A stretch of DNA of 64,000 nt from a virus: positions 1 to 64,000 of the IMG/VR virus record IMGVR_UViG_3300047160_020099; one strand, 5' to 3'. The notes beneath the pieces are model-generated. The model had not been told where the DNA came from and made no database searches. It worked only from the letters and a program-made list of their open reading frames with translations. Every line of letters starts with the position of its first letter. Positions within the stretch are counted from its first letter, which is position 1. The position numbers and the translations under genes are program-made. Below, piece by piece: positions 6,501 through 64,000 of the stretch.

Positions 6501-9485
6501 GGCAAGACGCGTATGGTCATGCCGAACAAGATCGACTTCTGGCTCCCTCACATGGAGCAAGCCTTCTCCCCGCTCAATAACCTGGTGCCGCTCAAGTCCA
6601 CGATCAAGGGTCAGCGGGCGGCCATGGCTTCCCGCTTCATCACCCAGGCACTACCACTGAACAAACCCGACGCGCCATTGGTTCGCGGACAGGTGCCTAA
6701 CCGTCCTGGCCAGTCATTCGAGGAGTTCTACGGCAGGTTCATGGGCGCTGTGCAGGCTGCTAACAGCCCAGGACGTGTGGCGTCTGTAACGCCTGACGAA
6801 ATCGTTGTCAAGCACGCGGACGGGACTACAAGGAACTACGAGCTATACAAGACGTTCCCGTACAATCGCAAGACTTACCTTCACAACACCCCACTTGTGC
6901 AAGAAGGCGACCCTGTTCAGCCTGGCCAGTTGCTCGCCAAGAGCAATCAAACCGACGACCAGGGCCACGTCGCCCTCGGCAAGAATCTCCGTGTTGCTTA
7001 CATCCCGTTCCGTGGTGGTAACTACGAAGACGCCTACATCATCTCGGAATCGGCCGCCAAGAAGCTAACCAGTGAGCACATGTATCAACATGTGCTGGAA
7101 TGGGACCCCAGCCACCGTAAGGGTAAGAGGATTTACTCCTCGATCTTCCCCGGCACTTACGACAAGAAGACGCTGGACAAGATGGATGACGATGGTGTCA
7201 TCAAGGAAGGTGAGACCGTTCACTTCAATGACCCGGTCGTTCTGGTCGCTGCCGAACGTGAGTTGTCGCAGAAGCAGATTCACTCGGCACACAAAGGCTC
7301 CTTCGTCGATCGCTCGTTGACATGGGAGCACCACGCCGACGGTATCGTTACCGACGTGGCCAAGACGCCGAAGGGCATTACGGTAGCCATTCGCGGGCTG
7401 GCCCCTTCGAACATTGGAGATAAAATTAGTGGGAGATTCGGCGATAAAGGGGTAGTGTCGCAAATCGTCCCCGACGACCAGATGCCTCACGATGAAGAGG
7501 GCCGCCCGTACGAAGTGCTGGCCAACCCACTCGGCATCATTTCACGCTGCAACGTCGGCCAGGCCATCGAAGCACGTCTGGGTAGGATTGCCGAGCGCAC
7601 CGGCAAGCCGTTCGTCATCGAGGACTTCCCGGCTGACGGTCGCGATATTACCCAGTGGGCAATGGACCAGGTGGCCAAGGCCGGCTTGCCCGACACCGAA
7701 ACGGTCATTGACCCAGCCACCGGCAAGCACATACCTGGCGTGCTGACAGGCAACCGCTACTTCATGAAGCTGATGCATACGGCCGAAGCGAAAGGTCAAG
7801 GCCGTGGTCTTGGTGCCTACACCGCGGAAGACGTGCCGGCTCGCGGTGGCGCCGAGGGCTCCAAGAAATTTGCCATGATGGACCTGCACGCAGTTCTCTC
7901 TCATGGTGCCACGGAAGTTCTCCGCGACGCCAAGCTGGTCCGCGGCCAGAAGAACCAGGAATACTGGTCGAACTACATGAGTGGTTTCCGTCCGCCCACT
8001 CCCAGGCCGCCTATTGTCTACGACAAGTTCATCAACATGCTGAAGGGTGCCGGCATCAACGTCCTTCGCGACGGCCAAAAGATGCGCATCATGGCTCTGA
8101 CGGATAAGGCCATCGACAAACTTAGCGAGGATCGAGAGCTTCAGAACGCCGAAACCGTTGACTGGAAGACTGGCTTGCAACCCAAGAGAGGCGGCCTCTT
8201 CGACGTACACCTGACGGGCGGTCACAGCGGCAACCGCTGGTGCCACATCAAGCTAGTCGAGCCCATGCCGAATCCAGTCATGGAGGAGCCTATTCGCCGG
8301 CTGCTCGGTCTGACGGCCAAGAAGTTCGAGGCTGTCGTGGCCGGACAGGAACAGCTCGACGGGCGTACCGGCCCTGCTGCCATCTCCGCGGCCCTCAACC
8401 GGGTGAATCTGGACCAGGCCATCGAGCAAGCACTGGCCGACGCGAAGTCTGGTCGAAAGACTCTTCGCGATAACGCCATCCGCAAGATTGGCTTCCTGGC
8501 CGGGGCCAAGAAAAATGGCATACACCCTCGCGAGTGGATGCTCTCCAAGGTGCCCGTCCTGCCGCCGCTTTTCCGTCCCGTTTCTGTCATGCAAGGCACG
8601 GGCGGGCAGCTAATCAGTGACGCCAACTACCTCTACAAGGAAGTGTTCGACGCCAACCAGCTACTCGGCCAACTCAAGCAGGCGACGGACGACGTCGGTG
8701 AAGAGCGACTGAACCTGTACAAAGCCTTCAAGGGCGTTACTGGCCTTGGCGAGCCTACACAGCCCAAGAACCAGGAGCGACGGGTCAAAGGCATGTTGGC
8801 CCAGATATTCGGAACGAGCCCCAAGTGGTCGTTCGTGCAGCAGAAGCTGCTCGGCACAGCCGTGGACCTCGTCGGCCGAGCTACTGTCATCCCGAATCCC
8901 GACTTGAACATGGACCAGGTCGGCTTGCCAGAGACTCGTGCCTGGGAGGTCTACACGCCCTTCGTGGTGCGTCGAATGGTGCGTCGTGGCGTGCCCCGTG
9001 TGCAGGCACTGGAGTATGCCAGGGACCATCATGCGCTCGCCCGGCAAGCTTTGATGGAGGAGCTCAACGAGCGGCCGGTGCTGGTCAACCGTGCTCCGGT
9101 GCTGCACCGCTACGGCATGATGGCCTTCTGGCCGCGACTGACCAAGGGAGATGTGCTGCAAGTGCCGCCACTGATTGTGGGCGGGTTTGGCATGGACTTC
9201 GACGGTGACGCTGCCAACTACCACGTGCCTGCCTCCGACGAGGCAAGAGATGAAGCCCTGGCCAAGATGTTGCCGTCGCACAATCTTTTCAGTGTGAGCC
9301 GGTTCCGAGTTCACTATTTGCCCCGGCAAGAATATCTTTCTGGGCTTTGGGCAGCCACGAATGGTGTAAACTCAAAGCAACGCCCTCGGGTGTTTGCCAC
9401 TACCCGGGAAGCAATCGAAGCTTTCAATCGCGGAGAGCTTGAGCCAGGGCAGCGGGTTGAGATCATGGAACACAGCAAGCCCTAA
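3591..9485 (+). CDS. rpoB: Phage multisubunit RNA polymerase: beta fused to the N-terminal (catalytic) part of beta', with two inteins
   Basis: Beta motifs FILNGNEYTLSHQ, GNYEDAYIISE, GDKISGRFGDKG, LANPLGIISRCNVGQ, YFMKLMH; after about 8080, beta' motifs VPVLPPLFRP, LLGTAVDLVGRA, VLVNRAPVLHR and DFDGD (9195-9209). Confidence 0.95.
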   Translation: MPDVITPSLMESAPVETPKLADPSQMREFGDADATRKAIYDNLLVSAGKIPTVKNKFYSLSVEEPHYDGPDHYSIAEQKKAILEGRTLSRRLRGTWVLKDNDGKEVERKLMTLAQVPHMTNRGTFILNGNEYTLSHQMRLRSGVFTRIKENGEIESHLNILPGKGLSHHYFLEPATGIFKVQVRQSAMPLLPLLRTLGVTPEEMKGAWGPDLYAANQLKDDPRVVDKLYDKFVSKKETGLSHQEKEQAVKNAITAMELDPEVTSRTLGKPYARLDRDAALATTRKLLTVSRGEMEPDDRDHLAFQHFLGPEDLLAERIGRDRGVLNQLLWRATSRKGLAGVQPNVFTKHVNAAIMDSGLGQSLEEINGADVFDQQTRVSRLGYGGIPCHSADTEVFTAEGWKAWPAVTMADRLACVIDRQLAFRCPRQLFAETYNGEMLQAVNEQIDYLVTPQHRMYVLPTDEPEPSWQFKTAEEIHGKCVWQLLGKAGRSISQLAGIVVQPEHYQRIAYAGRVYCAEIEGGLLLTRRNGKLLWSGNSIDAVPDEARSVQPSHLGYVDLLRTPECSGPLTEVMTSKGWKFWPTVTADDELACLIDDRLEFHKPLKLIAADYVGPMCGARTDTLEYLNTPNHRQYVRPMHKGATWRIETSEQIGTKSRIHRTGGHLPWAGMPQSMFELPAIERLGNHTNTVPPIPFQDWAEFMGWYLSEGHCTYEEVRPTYNVGISQSQEANPENCQRIEALLARLPFAWHYNRSMRCYILQGKQLASYCRQFGYCQDKWIPRELLEADEPTRRLLMESMLLGDGHRRNGTSKRDRYDTTSEKLAQDFQWLAFTLGIPSRITRSVDKRKESYLPVFSVNLHDRTERQIHQCNRYTIPYSGKVYCASVPGGLLYIRHGDTAGHWSGNSFRVGVDSRVSYAARKGSDRRIYTPFIDAHSGQTVWKSPQEVADSVIGFQDAGWAAHGLVPAQVAGKTRMVMPNKIDFWLPHMEQAFSPLNNLVPLKSTIKGQRAAMASRFITQALPLNKPDAPLVRGQVPNRPGQSFEEFYGRFMGAVQAANSPGRVASVTPDEIVVKHADGTTRNYELYKTFPYNRKTYLHNTPLVQEGDPVQPGQLLAKSNQTDDQGHVALGKNLRVAYIPFRGGNYEDAYIISESAAKKLTSEHMYQHVLEWDPSHRKGKRIYSSIFPGTYDKKTLDKMDDDGVIKEGETVHFNDPVVLVAAERELSQKQIHSAHKGSFVDRSLTWEHHADGIVTDVAKTPKGITVAIRGLAPSNIGDKISGRFGDKGVVSQIVPDDQMPHDEEGRPYEVLANPLGIISRCNVGQAIEARLGRIAERTGKPFVIEDFPADGRDITQWAMDQVAKAGLPDTETVIDPATGKHIPGVLTGNRYFMKLMHTAEAKGQGRGLGAYTAEDVPARGGAEGSKKFAMMDLHAVLSHGATEVLRDAKLVRGQKNQEYWSNYMSGFRPPTPRPPIVYDKFINMLKGAGINVLRDGQKMRIMALTDKAIDKLSEDRELQNAETVDWKTGLQPKRGGLFDVHLTGGHSGNRWCHIKLVEPMPNPVMEEPIRRLLGLTAKKFEAVVAGQEQLDGRTGPAAISAALNRVNLDQAIEQALADAKSGRKTLRDNAIRKIGFLAGAKKNGIHPREWMLSKVPVLPPLFRPVSVMQGTGGQLISDANYLYKEVFDANQLLGQLKQATDDVGEERLNLYKAFKGVTGLGEPTQPKNQERRVKGMLAQIFGTSPKWSFVQQKLLGTAVDLVGRATVIPNPDLNMDQVGLPETRAWEVYTPFVVRRMVRRGVPRVQALEYARDHHALARQALMEELNERPVLVNRAPVLHRYGMMAFWPRLTKGDVLQVPPLIVGGFGMDFDGDAANYHVPASDEARDEALAKMLPSHNLFSVSRFRVHYLPRQEYLSGLWAATNGVNSKQRPRVFATTREAIEAFNRGELEPGQRVEIMEHSKP
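4752..5201 (+). mobile_element. Mini-intein 1 (150 aa, no endonuclease) in RNAP beta
   Basis: Begins CHSADTEVFTAEGW after GYGGIP; block B VTPQHRM; block F VYCAEI; ends WSGN followed by Ser. Confidence 0.9.
5283..6305 (+). mobile_element. Intein 2 (341 aa) with LAGLIDADG homing endonuclease in RNAP beta
   Basis: Begins CSGPLTEVMTSKGW after RTPE; TPNHR; FMGWYLSEG, MESMLLGDG and TTSEKLAQDFQWLAFTLGI blocks; ends WSGN followed by Ser. Confidence 0.92.
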
Positions 9486-13596: not shown

Positions 13597-13629
13597 TAAA
13601 ACCACTCATTGTTGTGGCATTATTATGTG
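13597..13629 (+). promoter_or_regulatory. Phage promoter-like motif P2
   Basis: TAAA-N13-GTGGCATTATTATGTG. Confidence 0.7.
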
Positions 13630-14272: not shown

Positions 14273-14306
14273 TAAATTCAGCTGAAATCGGTGGCATTCT
14301 TTAATG
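14273..14306 (+). promoter_or_regulatory. Phage promoter-like motif P4
   Basis: TAAA-N14-GTGGCATTCTTTAATG, immediately followed by the GAGGAG RBS. Confidence 0.7.
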
Positions 14307-30086: not shown

Positions 30087-30120
30087 TAAATTTCTACCAT
30101 TTATGTGGCATAAATAGATG
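30087..30120 (+). promoter_or_regulatory. Phage promoter-like motif P5
   Basis: TAAA-N14-GTGGCATAAATAGATG. Confidence 0.7.
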
Positions 30121-30616: not shown

Positions 30617-30650
30617 TAAATTTACTCATCATTTGCGGCATTATTCAATG
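30617..30650 (+). promoter_or_regulatory. Phage promoter-like motif P6
   Basis: TAAA-N14-GCGGCATTATTCAATG. Confidence 0.7.
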
Positions 30651-32231: not shown

Positions 32232-32265
32232 TAAATTCCAATCACTTTGGTGGCATTCTTCAGTG
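32232..32265 (+). promoter_or_regulatory. Phage promoter-like motif P7
   Basis: TAAA-N14-GTGGCATTCTTCAGTG. Confidence 0.7.
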
Positions 32266-32643: not shown

Positions 32644-32677
32644 TAAAAAACGACAAGAGCGGTGGCATTATTAGATG
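32644..32677 (+). promoter_or_regulatory. Phage promoter-like motif P8
   Basis: TAAA-N14-GTGGCATTATTAGATG. Confidence 0.7.
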
Positions 32678-38557: not shown

Positions 38558-39538
38558 ATGACAGAGACATGGAAATCGCCGTTGGGTAAACGACCGAGAA
38601 CTTACAGTCCAGAATTCGAGCAAACAGTTTTACAAGCGTTCCGCGAGGGAAAATCCGCTTCAGATATCGGTCGCGAAACAAATAAGCCGGCTTACTTGAT
38701 TCGGCTCATTCTGCAACGGTTTGGACTTAAAGCATCCGTGAATCAGCGGAGAGGACCACAAGGAAAACCACCAGAGACCCAACAAGCTATCGTGGTTTTT
38801 TATCAGGAGCCTCATACGATTCACGCAACAATGGAGCGCTTTGGCATGTCATATGGAGGTATTCGCAAGATACTGTCCAAAAATAATGCGCTTCGTGGTG
38901 ATGAGGGTCGCCGAGCTTTTAGTCCAGACGAAGTAGCTGAAATGAAAAGGCTGTTTCTGGCTGGCACGTCGCTCTGTGAAATAGCTGAGCAATTCCACAC
39001 ATGCGCACGAACAACGGAACGCTGGCTACACGAGAACGGTGTTGAACTTCCGGTTAAAAAGGATCAGCGACGTACAGAATTAGCCGAAGGGGTGGCCGAG
39101 GCAATCAAAGCATTGTGGGCTGACGGCAATAACACCGGTACGATCGCAGAAGCGTGTGGATTGAAACGAGGAGCGGTGATCTGGTTTATACGACGCGAGG
39201 GATTGAGTCGTCCACGTAAAGATGGCCGTATTTTCCATCGCAGAGATGGTTATTGGTACATTCTTGTTCGCGCGGACGATCCTATGCACGCTATGGCTAA
39301 TACCAATAGCTATGTCCTTGAACACCGCCTCGTCGTGGCCCGCCACCTCGGCCGTCCGCTGACCCGGCACGAAACCGTTCACCACATCAACGGTGACAAG
39401 AACGACAACCGGCTGGACAACCTCCAGCTTCGCCACGGCAACCATGGGACTGGAATCGTTCTCCAGTGTCGCTGCTGTGGCTCAACCGATATCACCGAAC
39501 GACCTTTGGCCGTCAGTGAACTTAAACCAGGAGATTGA
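38558..39538 (+). CDS. HNH homing endonuclease with tandem HTH repeats
   Basis: YVLEHRLVVARHLGRPLTRHETVHHINGDKNDNRLDNL; four HTH-like units; lower GC than neighbours. Confidence 0.88.
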   Translation: MTETWKSPLGKRPRTYSPEFEQTVLQAFREGKSASDIGRETNKPAYLIRLILQRFGLKASVNQRRGPQGKPPETQQAIVVFYQEPHTIHATMERFGMSYGGIRKILSKNNALRGDEGRRAFSPDEVAEMKRLFLAGTSLCEIAEQFHTCARTTERWLHENGVELPVKKDQRRTELAEGVAEAIKALWADGNNTGTIAEACGLKRGAVIWFIRREGLSRPRKDGRIFHRRDGYWYILVRADDPMHAMANTNSYVLEHRLVVARHLGRPLTRHETVHHINGDKNDNRLDNLQLRHGNHGTGIVLQCRCCGSTDITERPLAVSELKPGD

Positions 39539-53928: not shown

Positions 53929-53968
53929 AAGCCCGTCAGAAAAGCGTCATGCTTTCCTGACGGGCTTT
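53929..53968 (+). terminator. Terminator after the tail tube
   Basis: AAGCCCGTCAG..AAAGC/GCTTT..CTGACGGGCTT stem. Confidence 0.75.
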
Positions 53969-53982
53969 AGTATTGGAATACT
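53969..53982. promoter_or_regulatory. Palindrome copy 9
   Basis: T-AGTATTGGAATACT-A between the terminator and the RBS. Confidence 0.8.
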
Positions 53983-53994
53983 ACGAGGTCAAGG

Positions 53995-56577
53995 ATGCCA
54001 GAGCGGGCTTACTCGCTGGAGCTTCGCGGGTCCCGGGATTTCCCGGGTCCTGTCGGCAACACCCGTCCCCACCAAGACCCGACCGTTTCCTCTGGCTTGC
54101 ACAGCATGGGGCTGCACGTCGAGCCCCGCCTCCTCTTCGGCCGGATCGTCGATTGCGTCGCGTACGGCCATCTCTACAAGGTCCAGCTGGAACGTAGCGG
54201 TCAGATCATCCTTTGCACGTCTTCCGGTCAAGGCACTTTCCAGCTTGTCGGCGCCCGCGTCATCAACACCTACAACTACGGGTGCGGCGTCATCGTCTTC
54301 TACCACCCGCAGTCGCCTCTCGGCTTCATCCTCTGTGCCCTGCCCGATTTCATGTTTGACGGCACCAGCGGCATGGCCGACTTCCTCGTGCAGGGTTCCA
54401 ACGTCGGCCTTCGCACTGACGGCGTTCACAAATTCCCGTTCTTCATGGCTGGTGCCGGCGGCCTGGAAGACCGTTCTGGTGGCCGACCGTTCGACAGCTT
54501 GCCTGTCGGCGAATGGGGCGCTATCACCGAGACCGGGCTAGCTTTCTTCCTCGATCCATTTCTGGCTTATATGCGAGTGGACGAGGAGACAGGACTCTTC
54601 CTCTTCTATCACGACCAGCTGGCCCGTCTTGCCGGCCACAACTTGCAAATCTGGTCAGCCGGCCGACAGCGCGAAGAGCTTGACGATCAGAACGAGTTCA
54701 TCGGTGAGGAAGGCTGGACACACCAGCTCTTCGAGGCCCGCGGCACCTTCGGGCCGTTGACTGGTACTGCCGTTTCCCGCTCCTACGGTTCTTCCGACAC
54801 CCAAGTCGCGTCACCCTGGTATTCGGCACTGGAGCCGGCCTATGACGACCAGGTGCCTTTCCACCGGCGCCGCAGCTACAGAGGCTATCTCGGGCAAGGC
54901 GGCACAGAAGTGCTGGCACTGCCGCCCGTTGGTGCCTACAACGACTCGTTCAACCGGCTCTCTGAACCACCGACCATACCCGGGGCCTTCGAAGAGGGTG
55001 TGGGCGTAGACGGCACCTACGCACTGCGCTCGGCCAAGTCCGTCATCATTTCGAAGTGTCCGAACATCCCGGTGCCAGCCAGGAAAGCTGCTCCAGACGA
55101 CCCGGAAGGCGACACGCCAACCGACTACAAGTTTGCTGGCATTTACGGCTCCGGCCCTTCACATTCGGTCCATGACATTTCCGGTCCGTCGTCCGGTACC
55201 CCCAGCCAGGTACGAGCCGCTGCCGTTGCCGACTACTACGACTTCGTCTTCAACTGGAAGGCCTGGCGACACGCCTTCCACTACCACACGCTCGACTGGT
55301 ATCTGCCGGACGAGTCCGGCATGCCAATGGAAAGCAACATGGCTTCCGGCGTGCCGAGTTACGGCTCCCTGGCAACCCAGCAGTACCTGCCCACGCCAAC
55401 GTCGTTCACGCTCAAGGTTGACGAGCGCTACGGCAACATCATCTACTTCCCGAACAACGCCTTCATCGCTCTCCTCGAAGACGGCGGCATCATGTTCGTG
55501 GACGGCTGGGGCAGTGAGTTCCTCATGTCAGCCGGCTCCATACGTCAATCCTGTGCCGGCGACCATTGGGTTGTGGCAGGCCGCAACGCCAACGTGCTGG
55601 CCGGCTATGACGTCATCCAGCGAGCTAACAACGAAGTCAACCTGACCGCCAATCTGGGCAACGTGCGTGTCGAAGCCTACCAGAGCGTCATGGCGCTTGC
55701 AGGCAACGGCGGCTGTGGTGGCTTCCTGTTTGAGAGCAGGGCCATACAGGCCGGTTATGCGTACGACGCACACAACCCTGTGTGTTCCGGCTTTCTTGTC
55801 CGCTGCAAGGAGAGCCCTGTTGTGCTGCTCGGCGCCGACATGCTGATCTCCACACGTTACCCGTCGCAGGGCGGTCACATCGTGCTCGACGCCGGCACTG
55901 CCAAGACCATGCTGCACGGCAGCGACATCGAATTGCAGGCCACATACTCGGTGCTACTGGCGGCTGACGGCACGGCGTTTGAATTCTGGAGTGACGAGGC
56001 GAATTTTGGTGCCGACGTCGGTATCGATGGCAAGCTGGTCGCAACCGACTGCGGCATGTTTGGTACCAGTGTCTCGTCGCCTACCGTAGCCGGCAGCCTG
56101 GCCACTTACACGTCCGGCGTGGCTTCTACTGTTACTACCGCCAAGACAGCAGTCGCTGACCGGGCAACTGTAGCCAACGCTTACGCAGTGGCAGCACTTG
56201 CCGACATACAGGAACTGTATACTGCCGCACCGGCTATTGTTTCGGTACAATTTGAGCACCGTGACCAGGCTGACTATTTGACAACCGGCATGAGTTTCTA
56301 CGAGCCACGCTGGCACCAGATAGCCCGGCTGAGTGGGCAGACACTGGCGTACTGGACCGAGACTCCTTGCACAGACGACGCGGCCAATGTGACCTATCCG
56401 TACCCTGGCAAGACTGTCTGGCTAGGTTCGCATTACGCCAAGGAGAACCTGGCTCTGCACAACCAGGTCACCAACCTGGCAGCCGACCGCGGTTCGACTT
56501 ATGAGACCGCTGCATATGACTCGCCCAGCTTTGTGGTAATGGACGGTAACTTCCCAGTGATCGTTAACCCCTCATAA
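53995..56577 (+). CDS. Putative baseplate spike (gp5/VgrG-like)
   Basis: N-terminal OB-like GRIVD..YKVQ; beta-helix-like tract (IALLEDGGIMFVDGWGSEFLMSAGSI); position. Confidence 0.55.
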   Translation: MPERAYSLELRGSRDFPGPVGNTRPHQDPTVSSGLHSMGLHVEPRLLFGRIVDCVAYGHLYKVQLERSGQIILCTSSGQGTFQLVGARVINTYNYGCGVIVFYHPQSPLGFILCALPDFMFDGTSGMADFLVQGSNVGLRTDGVHKFPFFMAGAGGLEDRSGGRPFDSLPVGEWGAITETGLAFFLDPFLAYMRVDEETGLFLFYHDQLARLAGHNLQIWSAGRQREELDDQNEFIGEEGWTHQLFEARGTFGPLTGTAVSRSYGSSDTQVASPWYSALEPAYDDQVPFHRRRSYRGYLGQGGTEVLALPPVGAYNDSFNRLSEPPTIPGAFEEGVGVDGTYALRSAKSVIISKCPNIPVPARKAAPDDPEGDTPTDYKFAGIYGSGPSHSVHDISGPSSGTPSQVRAAAVADYYDFVFNWKAWRHAFHYHTLDWYLPDESGMPMESNMASGVPSYGSLATQQYLPTPTSFTLKVDERYGNIIYFPNNAFIALLEDGGIMFVDGWGSEFLMSAGSIRQSCAGDHWVVAGRNANVLAGYDVIQRANNEVNLTANLGNVRVEAYQSVMALAGNGGCGGFLFESRAIQAGYAYDAHNPVCSGFLVRCKESPVVLLGADMLISTRYPSQGGHIVLDAGTAKTMLHGSDIELQATYSVLLAADGTAFEFWSDEANFGADVGIDGKLVATDCGMFGTSVSSPTVAGSLATYTSGVASTVTTAKTAVADRATVANAYAVAALADIQELYTAAPAIVSVQFEHRDQADYLTTGMSFYEPRWHQIARLSGQTLAYWTETPCTDDAANVTYPYPGKTVWLGSHYAKENLALHNQVTNLAADRGSTYETAAYDSPSFVVMDGNFPVIVNPS

Positions 56578-56587
56578 CGGAGGACAA

Positions 56588-57682
56588 ATGAACGATTTCA
56601 ATCTCATCGGCGACCGCAGGCCACAGCCTCCTGTCAGGCCGAAGCAAGTCAACACCCTGTCCGGTAGGCTACCTCTGCCTGCTGGCGTCGTACTCCACGA
56701 GAGTGAGACACAGGACCTCAGACCCTTTGGCTGGGAACAGGGCGATCCCATCCCACCGGATTTTGCCCAGGCACTGTCGCAAGCCCGTGCTGAGGCGCTC
56801 GATGACGTGCAAAGCGGCAAGCTGCACGATGTCGGGGACATCCCGCCCCTGAGAACGCCAGAGGAAGTACCGCTTCACCTGCTCGCTCCGGAACGTCGTA
56901 AAGAGCTGGAGGAGATGGTCACGACCTACAGGCGACTCGCGCCGCAGATAGCTGCTGCCGCAGCCGAACAGCAGTCACCTCAGCAGCAGATGACGGGTAT
57001 TGACCCGAGCGTGCGTCGGGCCATTCACGCTGCCATGGCCAGGGACGGCATCCAGTTCCCAGCCGCTGAACCTGCAGCGCCGGCACCGGAAGCGGCACCG
57101 GAGGTTGCCAAGCCCTCCTCGCCGGCTGCTCCCTCTCTGCCACAACGTTGCCCAAGCTGTCTGTATGACCTGGTGAACGGGACCGTCGTCGAGCCGACCG
57201 AAGACGACAAGGTCAACTTCGTCGGGGCCATTCTTGGGCAGCAACGCTTCGTCAAGCAGTACACCTTCCTCGGTGGCCGGCTCCGTGTGGTGTTCCGGTC
57301 GGCCACGAGCAGTGACAGCAGTGCCGTGGCCGAGCAGCTTAGCCGCGATCAGCGTGATGGCCTCGTTCTCAACCTGGACGACATGTTCCGCCGCGGCTTC
57401 GACTATCGCACGATGCTGGCGCTGGACGTGGTCGAAACCGGAAACCAGGTCCTGCAAGTCGGTAAGGCTGTGGATGAGTTCCTGGCGAAGCCGCCTGGTG
57501 AATTCCTGGAGAGTAAGGCCGTGCTTCCGGCCATCCTGGAACGCCTGTTGGCCCGGCAGCCTTTCCAGAACGAGGCCGTGTGGGGCATGCTGCTCAATGC
57601 GTCCCGCCGCTTCAACGATCTGGTAAAGCTGCTGCAGGACAGAGCCGACAAGCCGGATTTTTGGAAGACGGTCGGGGGCTAA
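56588..57682 (+). CDS. Tail assembly chaperone (short form)
   Basis: GGAGG RBS; ends PDFWKTVGG over a slippery site; upstream of the tape measure. Confidence 0.6.
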   Translation: MNDFNLIGDRRPQPPVRPKQVNTLSGRLPLPAGVVLHESETQDLRPFGWEQGDPIPPDFAQALSQARAEALDDVQSGKLHDVGDIPPLRTPEEVPLHLLAPERRKELEEMVTTYRRLAPQIAAAAAEQQSPQQQMTGIDPSVRRAIHAAMARDGIQFPAAEPAAPAPEAAPEVAKPSSPAAPSLPQRCPSCLYDLVNGTVVEPTEDDKVNFVGAILGQQRFVKQYTFLGGRLRVVFRSATSSDSSAVAEQLSRDQRDGLVLNLDDMFRRGFDYRTMLALDVVETGNQVLQVGKAVDEFLAKPPGEFLESKAVLPAILERLLARQPFQNEAVWGMLLNASRRFNDLVKLLQDRADKPDFWKTVGG

Positions 57683-58119
57683 TACTGCTCCGCGAGGCTC
57701 ACGTTCGGAAGTTGATCGACTTCCGCGAAGCCAAGTTCCTCGACCGTAACTGGTGGCTCTCTGCCGGCTGGGTTCTGGAGTGGCTGGAGAAGGAGCTCTA
57801 CGGCGAGGTGTATGGGCTGAAGTATGCCCTGCACCTTGCCCTGCTGGAGTACGCTCTCGAACAACGGACGTTCGACCTGCACTGGGAACAGGCACAGGAT
57901 TTCCAGGCGAGGATCATACGCCACAAGCTGCCTTGGCTGAAAATAGAGCATGGGCCTTCGCAGCAGGAGGTCAAGAGCATGGCGGCCAAGTGGGCTGAGA
58001 TTTTCGGCGACCCGAATGACCCGGAGGTTGCACAGAAGATTGAGGCCACGGCTGCCGCGCTGCGTTCTGGTGCTGCCGTTGGATTGGATCCGACAAGATT
58101 GGCTGGCAGGGTGAACTGA
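57655..58119 (+). CDS. Tail assembly chaperone -1 frameshift extension
   Basis: G GAT TTT T at 57655; -1 frame is open (FLEDGRGLILL...) and has no good start of its own. Confidence 0.6.
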   Translation, partial: GFLEDGRGLILLREAHVRKLIDFREAKFLDRNWWLSAGWVLEWLEKELYGEVYGLKYALHLALLEYALEQRTFDLHWEQAQDFQARIIRHKLPWLKIEHGPSQQEVKSMAAKWAEIFGDPNDPEVAQKIEATAAALRSGAAVGLDPTRLAGRVN

Positions 58120-58121
58120 GT

Positions 58122-60287
58122 ATGCTGCCCTTTGACCCATCACGTCCGCGAGCAGACCCGCAGTTCAACGTCGGCGGGGCTATGGGGCTGCTGTCTCAGC
58201 TGTTCCAGGGGCCCGCCAACCAGATGATGGGCAGCCAGGGCTTTGTCCCTGGACAGTTCTCTCCCACCCAGAGCTTCTACTCGCGACTGGAAGGCCAGCA
58301 GTACAACCGCGAGATGATGGCGGCCATGAAGACAGCCGCCGAGTCCGACAAGCCTACCTACTCGGCCCTGGCACAGGGCGCCTGGAACCTTAGCCACAAA
58401 GATCAACCTTGGGGGCCACAGCAGCAACAGAGCGCAGCCGCTTTTGCCAACCAGATGGCAGCAGCTGGCCCGATGATGGCCCAGCTCTTCCCTGCCACTT
58501 TTGATTCCCTGCACGGACAGCGTGGTTCCGCGCAGGTCATGGCGATGAACGTCTTCGATGCTTCTCGCTTCTTGCAGACGCCGGGTGGAGCGCCAATGAG
58601 CGGTGCTGCCGCCGGCAACCTGACTCGCGGCTTGCACGAGCAACTTTTCGGCAAGGGAGCCAACCTTTCTGAGATGCACGGTCTGGGTGGCGGCCAGGCT
58701 GGCATGATGTTCGGCGAGATGGTCCGCCGTGGACAGATCGGGCAAGTCTCAGGAGATAACCGCACTGACACGTCACGCATTGCCGGACAGATGAAGGAGA
58801 TGTCTGGCGCCGTCAAGGCCATGCAGGAAATCTTCGGTGACGCCGGCCATCCCGATGCGCCGATGAAGGCGATCTTCGACGCGCTGGAAAAGGTCACGCA
58901 AGGTGGTCTCACCAGCATGAGCCCGGCCAATGTGCAGGGTATCGTCAGGCAGATGCATACCCTGGCCCACAACACCGGGCAGAGCTTCGAAGCTATTGCG
59001 GGCATGGTGAGTACCGGCGGGCAAATGGCCCAGGCCGTCGGGCTCAACCGGCAGTTTGGCGTCGTTTCGGCGATGGGTGCCGCTGGATTCAGTCAGGCTT
59101 TTGCGAATATGGCCGGACCACAAGGCTTTGGTGGACTCTCCCGTGACGAGGCCACACAACTGGACATGCGACTGCGTACGTCTGCTGCAGCAAGCGCCCG
59201 CGGCAACGACCTTGGTGCCATCGCCAATCTGGCCGAGCAGGGTCTTATCAGTGGCATCGGGTTCGACCCCAAAAGCGGTAGCATGACCGATGCCGGTAAG
59301 GCTGAGTTGCAAGGCATCATGCGGCAGGCAGCCAACCTGTCTCCGGACCAGCTTGGTGCGTTTCTAAAGAGTCGTGGTGTTAGCGAGCGTACTTTCTCCG
59401 CCTTCCGCAATGCGCGAGAAGCCAACCAGGGAGCGGGCTTGCGACACGGTGCTGGTGAGATCGCGAGAGAGAACCAGTGGAAAGACGTTGCCCCGATGAT
59501 GGAAAACGCCTTGGCGGCAGGGGCCATGAACGCTGGGGCCGGAGCACAAAGCGACCGCATCGGTCGTGTCATGCGAGGCATGCTTGAAGCTGGTGTCTTG
59601 TCGCCCGAAATGCTAAGCGATCCGACGAAGATTCGTGCGCGTAACAAGGCTATGCGGGATGCCTTGGCTGGGCAAGGTATCAACGTGAGCGACGAGGTCA
59701 TAGCCAATTCACTGAATGAACTGGACCAGACGGTCAGATCTGACCCAACGCTGAGTGCCTTCGGCAATATCAGTGGCGTGCTGGCCATGACCCGCCCAGG
59801 GATCCTGGCCCAGGGCAAGAAGAACGTGCAGGCAGCTGACGCTGCTGCCAAACTGGCGGGTGTTACCTCGGGCCTCGGGCAGCAAGACGTCGTTCAGAGA
59901 ATCTCTGATGCCATACAGAAGGCGAAACCAGGAGATGACGCGCTCAAGGTTGCCGCCGCAGCGCTCGGTGGCATTGACATGGAGCAGATCAAACAGGCTC
60001 TCGGTCCCGACGCCGAGAAGATCATCAAGGATATTGCGGGGGCAGCTACTGGAGATGGTGGGGGTGCGGCAGCTGCTAGTGTTGCTGGTGCAGTTGCTGG
60101 TGATAAGAAATTACCCGCTGGTATGGGTGGTGTTCTCGGTGCTCTTGCAGGTGTAGGTGGCGGTGGTGGCGGTGGTGGCGGTGGTGGCGGTGGCACCATG
60201 ACGATTACCGGTAACTTGAACTTGACTACCGGTGCGATCAAGGCCGAGGGACATACTGGCGACGCACCGTCTCCGGACACGAAGTAA
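58122..60287 (+). CDS. Tape measure protein
   Basis: 721 aa, Ala/Gly/Gln/Met-rich and helical; follows the chaperones. Confidence 0.7.
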   Translation: MLPFDPSRPRADPQFNVGGAMGLLSQLFQGPANQMMGSQGFVPGQFSPTQSFYSRLEGQQYNREMMAAMKTAAESDKPTYSALAQGAWNLSHKDQPWGPQQQQSAAAFANQMAAAGPMMAQLFPATFDSLHGQRGSAQVMAMNVFDASRFLQTPGGAPMSGAAAGNLTRGLHEQLFGKGANLSEMHGLGGGQAGMMFGEMVRRGQIGQVSGDNRTDTSRIAGQMKEMSGAVKAMQEIFGDAGHPDAPMKAIFDALEKVTQGGLTSMSPANVQGIVRQMHTLAHNTGQSFEAIAGMVSTGGQMAQAVGLNRQFGVVSAMGAAGFSQAFANMAGPQGFGGLSRDEATQLDMRLRTSAAASARGNDLGAIANLAEQGLISGIGFDPKSGSMTDAGKAELQGIMRQAANLSPDQLGAFLKSRGVSERTFSAFRNAREANQGAGLRHGAGEIARENQWKDVAPMMENALAAGAMNAGAGAQSDRIGRVMRGMLEAGVLSPEMLSDPTKIRARNKAMRDALAGQGINVSDEVIANSLNELDQTVRSDPTLSAFGNISGVLAMTRPGILAQGKKNVQAADAAAKLAGVTSGLGQQDVVQRISDAIQKAKPGDDALKVAAAALGGIDMEQIKQALGPDAEKIIKDIAGAATGDGGGAAAASVAGAVAGDKKLPAGMGGVLGALAGVGGGGGGGGGGGGGTMTITGNLNLTTGAIKAEGHTGDAPSPDTK

Positions 60288-60289
60288 CG

Positions 60290-60763
60290 ATGGACGTATT
60301 TCTTACACATCCTGGCATTGCCATAGCTGTTGACTCGCCAGGCATACCCATGAACCTCTTCGTGGGTAACTGGAAGGGCTACACCGGCTACAAGTCCATC
60401 CTCACCAGCTTTGCCGTACACATGAAGGGTGGCGTTCGCTACATGCACACCCTCCGTGACATGATATATGTCTACACGTTCGGCGAGCGCATGGCACCGA
60501 TCACCATAAGCGGCGTTTCCTTCGCCGCAGTCTGCGAAAATCTGAAAGACCGTGTTGCCACAACCAGCCATGGTCTGGAATACGCCATGTCGTACTACTG
60601 GACTCAGCGAGTGACGGCGACAGGGCTGCCAATAAGACTCGTACTCGGTCTGGCAGCCATATTCCAGGGCTTCCTTGATGAGGGAACTTTCCAACTGGCT
60701 GATCCGAACAGTTACGTTGGGCAGTTCTCATTCAACTTCAATGCTATTCAGATGGGTCGCTGA
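60290..60763 (+). CDS. Baseplate/tube-initiator-like protein
   Basis: YMHTLRDMIYVYTFGERMAPITISG; follows the tape measure. Confidence 0.55.
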   Translation: MDVFLTHPGIAIAVDSPGIPMNLFVGNWKGYTGYKSILTSFAVHMKGGVRYMHTLRDMIYVYTFGERMAPITISGVSFAAVCENLKDRVATTSHGLEYAMSYYWTQRVTATGLPIRLVLGLAAIFQGFLDEGTFQLADPNSYVGQFSFNFNAIQMGR

Positions 60764-60765
60764 TT

Positions 60766-61560
60766 ATGGTTAATCACCTGCGAACCTGTTTGCTGAACGT
60801 CAACGGTAGCTTGTCGCCATCGCCTGCATATCCCGGCGAGGAGTACGTGCCACCTACCTACGTGGCGAAGTTTTTGCCTGGCGAGCTAGCACAGGGCTAC
60901 GAGCTGCTCTTCGGCCTGCAGCCAGATCGAGCCTTGATGAACTATAACCTTCGGGCCTTGCTCGACATGCTTCACGCGTCTGAGCTGGAGTCGCACGTAC
61001 TGGCGTTGGACCCGCGTATCACGTACATGCCGCCCAAGACAGACCTATTCGATCTGGTAGCCAGCGGTGCCGTGATAACGCAACTGGCCGGTACGCAGAC
61101 GCTCACGTTTGCTGGCGGCAACGCTGTCAGTCAGGTCGGCAATAACATCAGCTTCCGCTGGCAAGTGGCTGTACTGGATAGCTCGCACGTCCAGGTGACC
61201 CAGTATTCGAATACTTTCACGTCCGCAGTGACGACCATCCTTCCTTACACAGTCAGCAACGGTCTTTCTTGCCCGATCGCCTTGCCTGGCTCCAGCTTGT
61301 CTGTCCACTTCACAGCAGGAACAGGTAGCTCATGGCAGATTGACGCAATGGCCAGACCGGCACTCGACATACCAGCACTTTCGTACGGGTTGTCAACCAG
61401 TCTGACCGCCGACATGGCTGACGCTATCTTCGGCCCAGTTGGCTCGCCGGAGCCCTACAAGACCTTCCGCAACTTGTGGGAGATGCACGACCAGCTACCC
61501 TACCGGTTGGGTGGCTTGGTGTTAGCTCTCGGTTACCAGATAGACAGCTTGAAGAAATGA
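60766..61560 (+). CDS. Hypothetical baseplate-region protein
   Basis: 264 aa; palindrome copy 10 at 61202-61215. Confidence 0.6.
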   Translation: MVNHLRTCLLNVNGSLSPSPAYPGEEYVPPTYVAKFLPGELAQGYELLFGLQPDRALMNYNLRALLDMLHASELESHVLALDPRITYMPPKTDLFDLVASGAVITQLAGTQTLTFAGGNAVSQVGNNISFRWQVAVLDSSHVQVTQYSNTFTSAVTTILPYTVSNGLSCPIALPGSSLSVHFTAGTGSSWQIDAMARPALDIPALSYGLSTSLTADMADAIFGPVGSPEPYKTFRNLWEMHDQLPYRLGGLVLALGYQIDSLKK

Positions 61561-61563
61561 GCT

Positions 61564-63288
61564 ATGGCTGTACCAAACTGGTCTCTGTCAGACATCAAAT
61601 TGTTCGGCCTTGTGTGGCTTACCATCCAGGGCAAGCTCACTCCCTACATTCTGGACATTGTTAATGCGAGCGTCAGCTGGGGCCTGAACACCATACCGCG
61701 GGCTCGTATCACCGTTGCAGCCGGCCGAGAACTCAAGAGTCTGCAGCCATCAAACATCCACAACCTTGTTGACTACCTGAAGATGCAGCTGCCATTCCAG
61801 CTGTACATGGTAGCCCAGGAGAAAGGCAACTCCTACGGCATTCCTGTGGAACAGTGGCCGGCCAACCAGCAGCCCTTTCTCATCTTCGACGGCTACACGG
61901 CCAACGCTGGCTTCGCAAAGTCAATGTCTGGCGACGTCAACTACACACTCACCCTGACACACTGGCTGACGAACATGAACTTCTCGTCCTGTCTGAGCAG
62001 GACGACGAACACATTCAACCCAGCCCAGTTCGCGAAATCGGCAGCCATACGCGGCGGCTTTGGGGTTACCAACAGCTTCGTGGCCAGTACGCTCGGCAAT
62101 ACCTTTTTCACCACCGCGAACATACGACAGGACTTCTGGGGCTCTGCTTTGCTGCCCTGGCTGCAGAGGGTCTGCACCCAGGACATTCTGACTGATTCCA
62201 AGGACCCATTACTCCAGAACCCGGCTGGCAAACTCAACTACGAAGCCACACGAGCTCTACAACTCTTTGAACCGATCGTCAGGAACGGTGTGCCCACCTA
62301 CATCTACGGCGTACCGTTGTCCCTGGATGTCAACGCCCCATTAGCTGGCAGCATCATTACCGCGATCTCGGCAAACATCTCGAAGACGACCGGCGAAGCC
62401 ATGGCTTCGACAACCTTGTGGGACAAGCTTGTGGGCAACATGGGCTTTGCCGGCAGCTACTTGTTCTCGGTGGTACCGCTCGTGCGTTCGGCACTTGTCG
62501 TACCATTCCAGCCGGGGCTGCGAGCCGTCTGGCAGACCATCTACGCCCAGGAATACGATTCCATTGGTCTGGAAGGTGATACACCACGGGCCTTGCGTGG
62601 CGTCCGCATCTTTGGCGGCTTCGGTGATTCATACGGGCTGGGAGGTGCGCGTGTCGGCACGGCTGCGGATCAGACTTCCATCGGCGGTGCTTACACGAAC
62701 CCGAACATGACAGACGGTATGATCCGCTATTTCAATGCCGTCAGCTGGATGAGCAGTATCGTCAGCCCAAATGTTTACGGCACACAGGCGATGCAGCCAG
62801 CCGGCGTGATCGGCAATGCACTATTCCCTGGAAACGGGCAGCCACTGGTGGGACCTCGACCCGGGCTGGTGCGGCAGCAGGTGCAACCGTTACTAAACCA
62901 GTTCGCCCAGGCAGTGTATGTGAACGAGGTGTTGCAGGACCGCTCAGGAGTCATCAAGAGCAAGCTGCGGTTCGACATTGGGCCCGGCTCCTCGGTACAG
63001 ATCATGATCAACGAGGAGCCGTTCGTGGATCGGGCACTGGGATTGGGCGGCAGAAACTCTCTCTTCGGCTCTGTCCGCTCACTGACGCATTATTTCGACG
63101 CCGAGTCAGCAGATGCGTATACGGTCTTTGACATTGGCTGGCTCCGCAGCCCGCTGGAAAATACGCAAGACGGTACGTCGGTGATCGGGCATCCTTTGTG
63201 GCAGAATCAGTGGGTGGGCTCCCCGAACGTGGAGGGCTTCCTACCCAATCAACAACTGCCATTGCAGCTCGGCTGGACAGCAGGATGA
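61564..63288 (+). CDS. Putative baseplate hub protein
   Basis: ASVSWGLNTIPRARITV, IFDGY and RSGVIKSKLRFDIGPGSSV; gp27/GpD-like layout. Confidence 0.55.
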   Translation: MAVPNWSLSDIKLFGLVWLTIQGKLTPYILDIVNASVSWGLNTIPRARITVAAGRELKSLQPSNIHNLVDYLKMQLPFQLYMVAQEKGNSYGIPVEQWPANQQPFLIFDGYTANAGFAKSMSGDVNYTLTLTHWLTNMNFSSCLSRTTNTFNPAQFAKSAAIRGGFGVTNSFVASTLGNTFFTTANIRQDFWGSALLPWLQRVCTQDILTDSKDPLLQNPAGKLNYEATRALQLFEPIVRNGVPTYIYGVPLSLDVNAPLAGSIITAISANISKTTGEAMASTTLWDKLVGNMGFAGSYLFSVVPLVRSALVVPFQPGLRAVWQTIYAQEYDSIGLEGDTPRALRGVRIFGGFGDSYGLGGARVGTAADQTSIGGAYTNPNMTDGMIRYFNAVSWMSSIVSPNVYGTQAMQPAGVIGNALFPGNGQPLVGPRPGLVRQQVQPLLNQFAQAVYVNEVLQDRSGVIKSKLRFDIGPGSSVQIMINEEPFVDRALGLGGRNSLFGSVRSLTHYFDAESADAYTVFDIGWLRSPLENTQDGTSVIGHPLWQNQWVGSPNVEGFLPNQQLPLQLGWTAG

Positions 63289-63294
63289 CAAGAC

Positions 63295-64000
63295 ATGGAC
63301 TCGTTACTTGAGCCTGAATTCAAGCAACCGTTTGAGCTCTGGAAGCAGGACCCAGGCCCGCATACGGCTGGTCCTTTCCTGGCGGCCATCGACCCGGTGC
63401 TGCAGTCCGCCATACGGACTTATGGAGGTAGCCGGCCCAGCACGGCGCTGCATAGCCACGCCAAGTTGCTGGCACTCGATGCCGCGGCTCGCTACGACCC
63501 ATCACGGGCGAAGCTGCGTACCCATCTGATGACCAATCTCCAGGGCCTGCGACGCATCGGCGCCCGGCAAACGCAGATCATCTCCGTGCCGGAAAGAGTC
63601 GGTCTGGACCTGCATCGGTTGCATATTGCCAACCAGGAACTGCACGATCGGCTTGGTAGGGAGCCTTCGGACGCCGAGCTTGCTGACCACACGGGGCTGT
63701 CTCTGAAGCGGCTGACGCACATTCGCAGGGCTCGTCCCGGCTTTGCCGAGAGTCAGCTCGTATCGCGACACGAGGACAGTGAAACGACCTTCAACCCAGC
63801 GGTGACAGACACGGGCGATGACACCTGGGTCAACTTCGTCTATCACGACCTGCAGCCGACGGACCAGCTCATTCTCGAACACATCCTCGGCCTGCATGGC
63901 AAACGGGTCTTGTCAAAGCAACAGATAGCAGCCAAGCTGAAGTTGTCGCCTGGTGCTATCAGTCAGAGGGCTGCTAAGATCCAGATGATGCTGGACAAAC
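63295..64000 (+). CDS. Sigma-70 family (FliA/WhiG/SigF-like) RNA polymerase sigma factor, 3' end outside the window
   Basis: Own translation: region 2 ALDAAARYDPSRAKLRTH, IISVPER; region 3 ELHDRLGREPSDAELADHTGLS; region 4 LQPTDQLILEHILGLHGKRVLSKQQIAAKLKLSPGAISQR. Confidence 0.88.
   Translation, partial: MDSLLEPEFKQPFELWKQDPGPHTAGPFLAAIDPVLQSAIRTYGGSRPSTALHSHAKLLALDAAARYDPSRAKLRTHLMTNLQGLRRIGARQTQIISVPERVGLDLHRLHIANQELHDRLGREPSDAELADHTGLSLKRLTHIRRARPGFAESQLVSRHEDSETTFNPAVTDTGDDTWVNFVYHDLQPTDQLILEHILGLHGKRVLSKQQIAAKLKLSPGAISQRAAKIQMMLDK

Follow-up and report, generated by a model that had tools for sequence, protein, structure and literature searches.

A diverged sigma-70-family factor encoded in the baseplate operon of a phage lineage with its own bacterial-type RNA polymerase

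Large phages have been described as following 1 of 2 transcription strategies: the jumbo phages of group 1 encode an RNA polymerase (RNAP) and no sigma factor, whereas the sigma-bearing phages of group 2 lack an RNAP (Iyer et al. 2021; PMC7824862), and a 2026 review likewise describes jumbo-phage RNAPs as devoid of sigma homologues and assigns the sigmas of RNAP-lacking phages to the host RNAP (PMC13282480). Here, we analyzed the first 64 kb (hereafter, the window) of the 161,936-bp viral record IMGVR_UViG_3300047160_020099 (CheckV completeness, 78%), which carries, in a tail and baseplate gene run, a sigma-70-family gene starting at position 63295. The lineage to which this phage belongs holds both a bacterial-type polymerase and a recognizable sigma, in contrast to the 2 mutually exclusive strategies of the reviews.

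Several described systems invite comparison. Under the explanation that we prefer, the role of this sigma would be that of Gp68 of the phiKZ nonvirion RNAP (nvRNAP) and Gp226 of the AR9 nvRNAP, namely, the specificity subunit of a phage polymerase of the beta/beta' type. According to the reviews, and in agreement with the initial annotation of the locus, which had called them barely recognizable as sigmas, those subunits have no usable sequence similarity to sigma factors, whereas the present protein is recognizable by sequence as a sigma-70-family member. The phiKZ and AR9 polymerases consist of 4 or 5 chains, with separate virion and nonvirion enzymes, as opposed to 2 chains and apparently a single copy here. 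T4 gp55, SPO1 gp28 and gp33/34, and the RpoD-like sigmas of the "group 2" jumbo phages are, likewise, phage-encoded members of the sigma-70 family that redirect transcription to phage promoters, but the respective phages have no RNAP of their own and the sigmas dock on the host core; the present family accompanies a phage RNAP and has lost the docking motif. Late-made, particle-borne transcription machinery serving the next infection is represented by the virion RNAPs (vRNAPs) of N4 and phiKZ and by the RNAP of Thermus phage P23-45, which is fused to the tape measure protein. To our knowledge, none of these packaged enzymes is accompanied by a sigma-70-family factor, and, unlike in those systems, the case for packaging of the present sigma comes entirely from the particle proteome of a relative, the Salmonella phage Arash. 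Beyond the annotation and proteome of Arash, we found no literature on the sigma of this lineage in a search confined to sources outside subscription journals; a Vibrio phage preprint considered as a source (10.1101/2024.12.24.630238) concerns other phages.

The gene product is a diverged, strongly conserved, three-domain protein of the sigma-70 family, and the gene itself is an added member of a family already named in public sources, several relatives being labeled "specialized sigma subunit" by IMG. What is new is the probable pairing of the sigma with a phage RNAP, its fixed position in the baseplate module, and its apparently rewired core-docking region. The Pfam model of region 3 (Sigma70_r3, PF04539) matches all members of an alignment of 37 family proteins (alignment A1; mean column identity, 53%), scoring 29.3 bits for this sigma against a cutoff of 25.3, and residues 61–229 are covered by PHROG 351 ("RNA polymerase sigma factor"; E = 3.6e-8). 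In searches of the PDB with the A1 profile, sigma factors were the sole matches, the best being cyanobacterial SigA (8h3v; E = 2.9e-8, residues 61–237); regions 1.2 to 3.1 of Taq/Tth SigA aligned to residues 24–144, and Aquifex FliA was matched at E = 4e-5. The AlphaFold model (predicted local distance difference test [pLDDT] score of 85.4) comprises a sigma-2 domain with 4 N-terminal helices and a long helix (residues 7–18, 22–31, 33–43, 50–65, and 74–94), a three-helix sigma-3 beginning at P99-E100, which is invariant in the family, a disordered linker at residues 147–174, and a four-helix sigma-4. Within the linker, pLDDT drops below 50 at residues 153–167, whereas E152 and P168 are nearly invariant in the family.

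Structure comparisons led to the same assignment. Foldseek searches with the model retrieved sigma factors exclusively, over 230 to 260 aligned columns. With VIA-align, the best whole-chain match was Staphylococcus aureus SigB (Z 10.2 over 218 residues), domain 4 matched region 4 structures of SigA, SigE, and SigD (Z 9.7–10, root mean square deviation [rmsd] 1.5–2.3 Å, 62–69 residues), and region 2 matched that of SigE (Z 8.6, rmsd 3.1 Å, 89 residues). Whole-chain TM-scores were low because the domains are arranged differently in the free model and in the holoenzyme-bound chains. Membership in the sigma-70 family, as put forward in the initial annotation, is thus upheld by Pfam region 3, PHROG 351, and the profile and fold searches. 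The same annotation had described regions 2, 3, and 4 as recognizable, which is correct for region 3 and, weakly, for region 4, given that the Pfam model of the latter (PF04545) matches 10 of the 37 members and this sigma on its own at just 12.2 bits (E = 0.025), but does not hold for region 2 at the Pfam level: Sigma70_r2 (PF04542) has no match in the genome of the record or among the 37 members. The fold of region 2 is seen by profile and model, while its sequence signature has been lost.

Assignment to the FliA/WhiG family, also part of the initial annotation, was rejected. The sigma scored 31.6 bits with the cyanobacterial RpoD model of NCBIfam, 30.6 bits with FliA_WhiG (TIGR02479), 24.5 bits with RpoD_Cterm, and 23.3 bits with SigBFG, so that the FliA_WhiG score lies far below its cutoff of 189.6 bits and the RpoD and SigB/F/G models are equally weak (23–31 bits against subfamily cutoffs of 190–234 overall); RpoD-type, SigBFG, and FliA_WhiG models matched 35, 34, and 29 of the 37 members, respectively. 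Group-3 sigmas at large, namely the sigma-28 factors FliA, WhiG, and SigD and the SigB/SigF/SigG group (TIGR02980), resemble this protein in size (approximately 240 aa), in the sigma-2/sigma-3/linker/sigma-4 layout, in having neither region 1.1 nor the nonconserved insert, and in contributing, with SigB, the best whole-chain structural match. They differ from it in that here the core-binding motif is unconserved and the family is restricted to phages, but for 3 short contigs of metagenome-assembled genomes (MAGs), which were the only matches among 185,579 cellular species genomes.

Residue-level mapping, for which the family was aligned to the Escherichia coli sigma-70 and FliA sequences from MG1655, is in line with this rejection. 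Positions equivalent to sigma-70 F419 (as Tyr), T429, R441, P453, and, in the recognition helix, Q589 are invariant in the family. The aromatic residues of region 2.3 have been replaced, Y430 by His in 35 of the 37 members, W433 by Thr, Ser, or Val, and W434 by Gln, His, or Asn, which bears out the remark in the initial annotation that regions 2.3–2.4 are diverged and devoid of the usual aromatics. The W433/W434 pair is likewise gone from FliA, which, unlike this sigma, retains the Tyr at the Y430 position. Residues D81, R84, and R91 of FliA are said, following work of Koo and colleagues from 2009, to read the sigma-28 –10 region. Their positions are occupied by I88, R91, and E100 in this sigma and by Ala/His/Val/Ile, Arg/Gln/Lys, and an invariant Glu across the family, so that, of the 3, a basic residue is kept at the R84 position alone, and in part of the family. 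FliA-like traits are limited to size, domain layout, and the presence of Ser-Gln in the recognition helix of region 4.2.

The family is large. Searches recovered 358 related proteins (clustered at 90%), many of them on 150- to 230-kb contigs, and a family profile retrieved 724 clusters of relatives at E ≤ 1e-30; independent relatives score from E = 3e-109 downward, whereas the E value of 2e-119 for this sigma follows by construction, as the protein is part of A1. Q224, R225, and Q230 are invariant in A1. The open reading frame (ORF) is a plain ATG frame that remains open past the edge of the window, which covers residues 1–235; the stop codon at record position 64026 yields a 243-aa protein, the last 8 residues of which lie outside the window. 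The start codon is supported by the conservation, among relatives, of the N-terminus from LLEPEF onward. The invariant LLEPEF was considered as a shared capsid-targeting or protease signal and dropped, no similar motif being present in the RNAP subunits or other ORFs. One relative (P0212, 518 aa) has an unrelated 278-aa domain N-terminal to the sigma, and a few other members have low-complexity leaders of 60–150 aa before the conserved LLEPEF start; none of the N-terminal extensions (P0212, P0126, and others) resembles a gene product of this phage. Fusions of the sigma to an RNAP or baseplate protein were searched for and not found.

The polymerase that the sigma would serve is encoded at the other end of the window, in 2 parts. 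In a 1966-aa ORF, Rpb2_6 (E = 6e-49) is followed by Rpb1_1 and Rpb1_2 (E = 4.8e-21), corresponding to E. coli beta 616–1337 and beta' 174–557, respectively, and the catalytic DFDGD is retained; the separate 635-aa protein aligned to E. coli beta' 573–1286. At the junction of beta and beta' (approximately 8064–8348, aa 1494–1588), 95 residues with a single Cys take the place of E. coli beta' 1–173, indicating that the zinc-binding domain of beta' is absent. Relatives of the beta' C-terminal part were detected only with an alignment, a single-protein scan giving no match. As side observations on this gene, LAGLIDADG_3 has a weak match (22.1 bits, cutoff 22.5) at 5985–6137 (aa 801–851) in the beta part, and the open frames of RNAPs in relatives range from 1458 to 2515 aa, which suggests that the polymerase gene has received inteins or homing endonucleases. 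In 1 relative (IMGVR_UViG_3300045988_176357, G033), the RNAP match at 64991–69868 contains 26 in-frame TAG codons (17, 7, and 2 in its 3 pieces), which suggests that TAG is a sense codon in this phage.

The sigma and the RNAP occur together almost without exception. Among large sigma-bearing records, the phage RNAP was found in 30 of 33, and in 23 of the 24 that are at least 90% complete; the 3 negative records also lack an Rpb2_6 match, 2 of them being 75% to 78% complete. Conversely, a profile search for the RNAP recovered 388 viral contigs, and exactly 1 sigma of the family is encoded in each of the 15 large RNAP-ascertained records outside the sigma set, including all 11 with a completeness of at least 90%. 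The co-occurrence shows that both genes are core to the lineage; it is not proof of contact between the proteins, since the phages are all related. Searches of the 162-kb record with Sigma70_r2, r3, r4, and r4_2, PHROG 351, and the family profile revealed no second sigma, and a Sigma70_r2-positive gene is absent from 18 of 23 complete relatives, the remaining 5 belonging mostly to a distant branch. Arash and Vibrio phage D69 do carry a second sigma that passes Pfam r2; in Arash, this is the 345-aa Gp196, with canonical DLIAAGNEGL and TYAGWW. The baseplate sigma is, hence, the one specificity factor common to the whole lineage and the sole one in the clade of this phage. The initial annotation had named it the cognate sigma of the phage RNAP: a bacterial-type RNAP is indeed encoded and co-occurs with the sigma, and the partnership itself is probable.

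Region 2.2 of sigma-70 docks on the clamp coiled-coil of beta'. In the family, Q406, E407, and N409 of this region are replaced by Ser, Lys, and Lys, flanked by Arg/Lys. The phage beta' coiled-coil is present, with E. coli R275, R278, and R281 replaced by Ala, Leu, and Gln, and R271 and N274 by Glu and Asp; the phage beta flap tip is shorter and diverged, in an alignment too weak for residue-level reading. Judging from these low-identity alignments, both faces of the interface appear to have swapped charge, and a private sigma–core pair would fit both the docking changes and the failure of Pfam r2 on this family alongside its success on the Arash-type second sigmas.

The initial annotation had placed the gene in a baseplate operon, 6 nt past a hub gene, and both statements proved accurate. 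The spacer between the hub gene stop (63288) and the sigma ATG is CAAGAC, with AGGA 8 nt 5' of the ATG, and the sigma stop codon overlaps the start of the next gene (ATGA; spacing –1 nt). The Atlas model of the hub-like 574-aa protein resembles gpD, Mu gp44, and VgrG (TM 0.62–0.76, normalized by target), and the protein has no Pfam or PHROG match; neither do the other large neighboring proteins, the roles of which come from structural look-alikes, save for the 549-aa protein encoded 1.3 kb 3' of the sigma, which matches Baseplate_J at 48.7 bits (cutoff 21.1). A fibre-like protein with collagen repeats is encoded farther downstream. The gene run extends through the sigma to record position 67844, with at most 12 nt between called genes from 53995 onward except at 57683–58121, where solely an overlapping alternative frame is open. 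Between 52000 and 64000, a search for sigma-70-type promoters gave 0 matches, against 3.5 expected. Late co-transcription is a fair inference from the 6-nt and –1-nt spacing and the lack of a promoter-like site within the run, and the gene packing makes it very likely that the sigma is made late, together with the baseplate proteins.

This arrangement is conserved. A hub homologue lies directly upstream of the sigma, at the same offset, in 64 of 76 related viral loci, and the genes for 145-, 187-, and 549-aa proteins follow downstream in 57 to 72 of the 76. Even in the most distant relatives (29% to 37% identity), the sigma is still preceded by the 860-aa and 364-aa genes and followed by the J gene. 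In Arash and D69, too, it lies amid virion genes, and the genes downstream of it are syntenic. At the head of the run, the palindrome AGTATTGGAATACT, 1 copy of a palindrome dispersed in this phage, lies 12 nt 5' of the first ATG, at the spot expected for a late promoter or operator. A 94-aa ORF (record 64026–64310) overlapping the sigma stop has no match in the 76 related loci and no Pfam match and has a G+C content of 0.51 versus 0.58 for the genome, as a lineage-specific small insertion beside the sigma; in relatives without it, the sigma is directly followed by the 145-aa gene. An HNH endonuclease gene (38558–39538; PHROG 20891, E = 1.2e-23) is inserted in the structural gene block.

One of the cultured relatives is Arash. 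Its Gp10, annotated as "RNA polymerase sigma factor RpoS" (OQ632216.1, 11892–12596), is the orthologue by best hit and family profile (E = 2e-24), whereas Gp196 has no significant match. Like the present sigma, Gp10 is encoded amid the tail genes of the virion, is followed by syntenic genes for a Baseplate_J-like protein and a 499-aa protein, and has a His at the sigma-70 Y430 position and the K-L-x-T-H motif; Arash also encodes a fused beta-beta'N plus beta'C polymerase, and in both phages the RNAP genes belong to the head module, close to those for portal and capsid. Vibrio phages D69, D148, and D181 carry the equivalent of Gp10. Arash and D69 differ in possessing the extra canonical sigma, which is absent from this phage and most of its clade, and Arash Gp10 has a wholly dissimilar recognition helix in region 4.2 (NINQYNYESSK versus SPGAISQRAAK).

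In the particle proteome of Arash, Gp10 is represented by 467 spectra and by 24 unique peptides, with a sequence coverage of 100%, together with beta (Gp206), the most detected protein with 3516 spectra, and beta' (Gp216) with 1210 spectra; for comparison, the portal and Gp13 yielded 32 and 29 unique peptides, and Gp196 is absent from the virion table, which skips from Gp194 to Gp197 (PMC10585845). The authors reported the detection of Gp10 in virions without a functional analysis (PMC10585845). The idea, voiced in the initial annotation, that the sigma is packaged into virions gains indirect support from this orthologue, found in particles along with beta and beta', and for the present phage would hold by extension. 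A precedent for a tail-borne transcription protein is the tape-measure-fused RNAP of P23-45, as described in a preprint (10.1101/2022.12.01.518664). More speculatively, the present sigma could itself travel in the tail or baseplate and reach the cell before the DNA.

The same annotation had connected the sigma with a TAAA-N14 promoter motif. Rederived from the sequence, the motif has 6 clear copies, all on the plus strand between 13 and 33 kb and mostly 47 to 101 nt before small genes, and there is no copy in the 35- to 76-kb structural block, which includes the operon of the sigma itself; a connection between the two is conjectural. In relatives, the exact pattern has 49 matches versus 10 for a reversed control, with few per genome. 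When the 2 boxes were searched for loosely, shuffled DNA yielded as many matches or more. A 40-nt weight matrix built from the 6 copies was overfitted and recovered its own seeds only; with the loose search at the level of shuffled DNA, the genome-wide promoter count rests on the 6 clear copies. Compared with the sigma-28 form TAAA-N15-GCCGATAA, the candidate sites share the TAAA, located at about –35, and a similar spacing, and the downstream box GTGGCATTATT fits the extended –10 TGnTATAAT at least as well.

In Arash, the repeated box TGGTATAAGTAA, which has no fixed TAAA upstream, occurs in 16 copies, all on the minus strand and before nonstructural genes, and its core resembles TGGCATTA of this phage (6 of 8 bases). 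Along with the different region 4.2 helix of Gp10, this is suggestive of the 2 promoter sets being read by the same type of sigma, although just 2 genomes are involved. The Arash genome also contains 5 pairs of the box CAAACGTTGTAACC, with copies 153 nt apart on opposite strands and with conserved flanks (…CCCACCTCAAGAC), the sites compared with the annotation falling in unannotated gaps; these pairs look like a repeated element of approximately 200 nt.

Taken together, these observations incline us toward the view that the sigma is the private promoter-specificity subunit of the lineage's own bacterial-type RNAP, made late and probably packaged. The protein would almost certainly be a working sigma factor and would probably bind the phage core and not the host core, because its core-binding helix and the matching phage beta' coiled-coil have both diverged from the bacterial pattern. 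Co-transcribed, in all likelihood, with the baseplate genes and produced late, it would, on balance, be loaded into virions with the polymerase and enter the next cell, where the phage-encoded holoenzyme would start early transcription, by analogy with Arash. Whether its promoters would be the TAAA-N14-GTGGCATTATT sites before small accessory genes we regard as evenly balanced. More tentatively, and with some doubt, the lineage as a whole (approximately 160–230 kb, at least 388 contigs, and the cultured phages Arash, D69, D148, and D181) could carry a full bacterial-type holoenzyme in the virion, with a docking surface that coevolved with the beta' coiled-coil and no longer fits the host core.

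Several points weigh against this view. The near-complete relative G028 (IMGVR_UViG_3300050821_017570; L071; 187 kb, 95% complete) has the sigma and the tail module, and neither protein nor Rpb2_6 searches found an RNAP in it, which points either to gaps in the record or to a phage that naturally has this sigma and no polymerase; co-occurrence elsewhere may reflect shared ancestry, as the phages of the lineage are all related. The roles of the docking residues are those generally ascribed to them, and the alignments on which the apparent interface changes were read are at approximately 25% to 30% identity. Arash Gp10 is just 27% identical to this sigma, and virion association was assigned to 116 of the 272 proteins of Arash, ligase, primase, and reductases (2 peptides each) among them, with the authors themselves allowing for carry-over (PMC10585845); given the presence of these enzymes, some nonstructural carry-over in the preparation is certain. 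On the promoter side, the downstream box TGGCATTAT differs little from the common extended –10 (TGnTATAAT), and it is possible that host sigma-70 or sigmas of the Gp196 type read the boxes in both phages. With 6 copies in 162 kb, most genes must use other signals, and a single sigma cannot alone explain a temporal program.

Some of these points would be accommodated if the protein were a classical phage sigma redirecting the host core to middle or late phage promoters, as T4 gp55 and SPO1 gp28/gp34 do, with the phage RNAP using another factor or none. Such is the usual role of phage sigmas, one that reviews assign to all sigma-bearing large phages, and the G028 genome, the production of the gene with late genes, and the resemblance of the candidate –10 box to the extended –10 of bacterial enzymes are all compatible with it. 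Yet every member has lost the canonical motif by which region 2.2 binds the core, and none of the 37 is matched by Pfam r2, whereas sigmas that dock on the bacterial beta' coiled-coil normally keep the motif, as Arash Gp196 does. The near-perfect co-occurrence with the phage RNAP in both directions, the retention of the family across very different hosts (Salmonella, Vibrio, and those of soil and lake metagenomes), and the presence of the orthologue in virions together with the phage polymerase also speak for a phage partner, and we consider a host-directed role unlikely.

Accepting the phage RNAP as the partner does not, by itself, place the sigma in the particle: a late-phase sigma could switch the phage enzyme to structural promoters, its appearance among Arash particles being carry-over. 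The location of the gene within the late structural operon, the evident contamination of the Arash particle proteome with replication enzymes, and the lack of an N-terminal targeting motif common to the sigma and the RNAP subunits would all suit such a factor. However, this is the sole sigma in the clade, and, were it late only, the phage enzyme would have no recognizable factor to guide it early; the one clear class of promoters precedes small accessory genes and not structural operons; and the unique peptides of Arash Gp10 are on par with those of structural proteins, with Gp196 undetected. We hold this explanation, too, to be improbable. Least probable by far is that a sigma fold has been exapted without a part in initiation, as a DNA-binding regulator or a baseplate or ejection accessory protein, although region 2.3 has lost its melting aromatics, other myophages use the slot between hub and wedge for genes of spike or gp25-like proteins, and Pfam sees region 3 and generic helix-turn-helix families only. 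At least 724 clusters, under strong purifying selection, retain the 3 domains, the linker of region 3.2, and the helix order, the equivalents of F419, T429, R441, P453, and recognition-helix Q589 are invariant, and FliA, a working sigma, also lacks W433/W434.

Table 1. Positions of the sigma gene, its domains, and other features, in window numbering except where another sequence is named.
Feature	Position	Strand	Evidence or remarks
Sigma gene	63295..64000 in window (63295–64026 in record)	+	ORF, Pfam Sigma70_r3, PDB profile and fold searches
Domain sigma-2, residues ~5–97, regions 1.2 to 2.4	63307..63585	+	model helices, profile alignment
Diverged core-binding stretch in sigma-2	residues 51–61		residue map
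Diverged melting/–10 recognition helix AKLRTHLMTNLQGLRR in sigma-2	residues 72–87		residue map
Domain sigma-3, residues 100–146, regions 3.0–3.1	63592..63732	+	Pfam Sigma70_r3 over residues 110–147
Region 3.2-like linker ("sigma finger"), residues 147–174	63733..63816	+	predicted disordered
Domain sigma-4, residues 175–240	63817..64000 in window, to 64014 in record	+	structure fit, Pfam r4
Helix-turn-helix of sigma-4, recognition helix SPGAISQRAAKIQ			
RNAP beta fused to N-terminal part of beta', 1966 aa	3585..9485	+	Pfam Rpb2_6, Rpb1_1, Rpb1_2
RNAP beta' C-terminal part, 635 aa	10497..12404	+	Pfam Rpb1_5, E = 2e-17
Operon head: terminator-like hairpin, then TTT; palindrome AGTATTGGAATACT	53931–53965; 53969–53982	+	84-nt gap sequence
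Tail/baseplate gene run, upstream part (860, 364, 721, 157, 264, and 574 aa)	53995..63288	+	tight packing
Hub-like gene, 574 aa	61564..63288	+	resembles gpD, Mu gp44, and VgrG hubs
Candidate promoter TAAA-N13-GTGGCATTATT	13597..13624	+	
Candidate promoter TAAA-N14-GTGGCATTCTT	14273..14301	+	47 nt before gene 14320
Candidate promoter TAAA-N14-GTGGCATAAAT	30087..30115	+	66 nt before gene 30153
Candidate promoter TAAA-N14-GCGGCATTATT	30617..30645	+	
Candidate promoter TAAA-N14-GTGGCATTCTT	32232..32260	+	65 nt before gene 32297
Candidate promoter TAAA-N14-GTGGCATTATT	32644..32672	+	101 nt before gene 32745
Arash CAAACGTTGTAACC pairs	26630/26783, 66377/66530, 100133/100286, 138480/138633, 173254/173407		OQ632216.1

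If the lineage does carry a full holoenzyme in its virions, the sigma would be the first of the sigma-70 family that a virus particle delivers, and the polymerase the first multisubunit enzyme of a phage to work with a true sigma. The matter is directly testable, given that virion proteomics is available for a cultured relative infecting Salmonella. The lineage would offer a minimal bacterial-like holoenzyme of 2 or 3 chains with a natural orthogonal sigma–core pair, which, should both pairing and packaging be true, would show how sigma–core interfaces can be rewired and would be a source of candidate orthogonal transcription parts. For the phages themselves, it would mean host-independent early transcription, which may explain resistance to host shut-off or to anti-RNAP defences.

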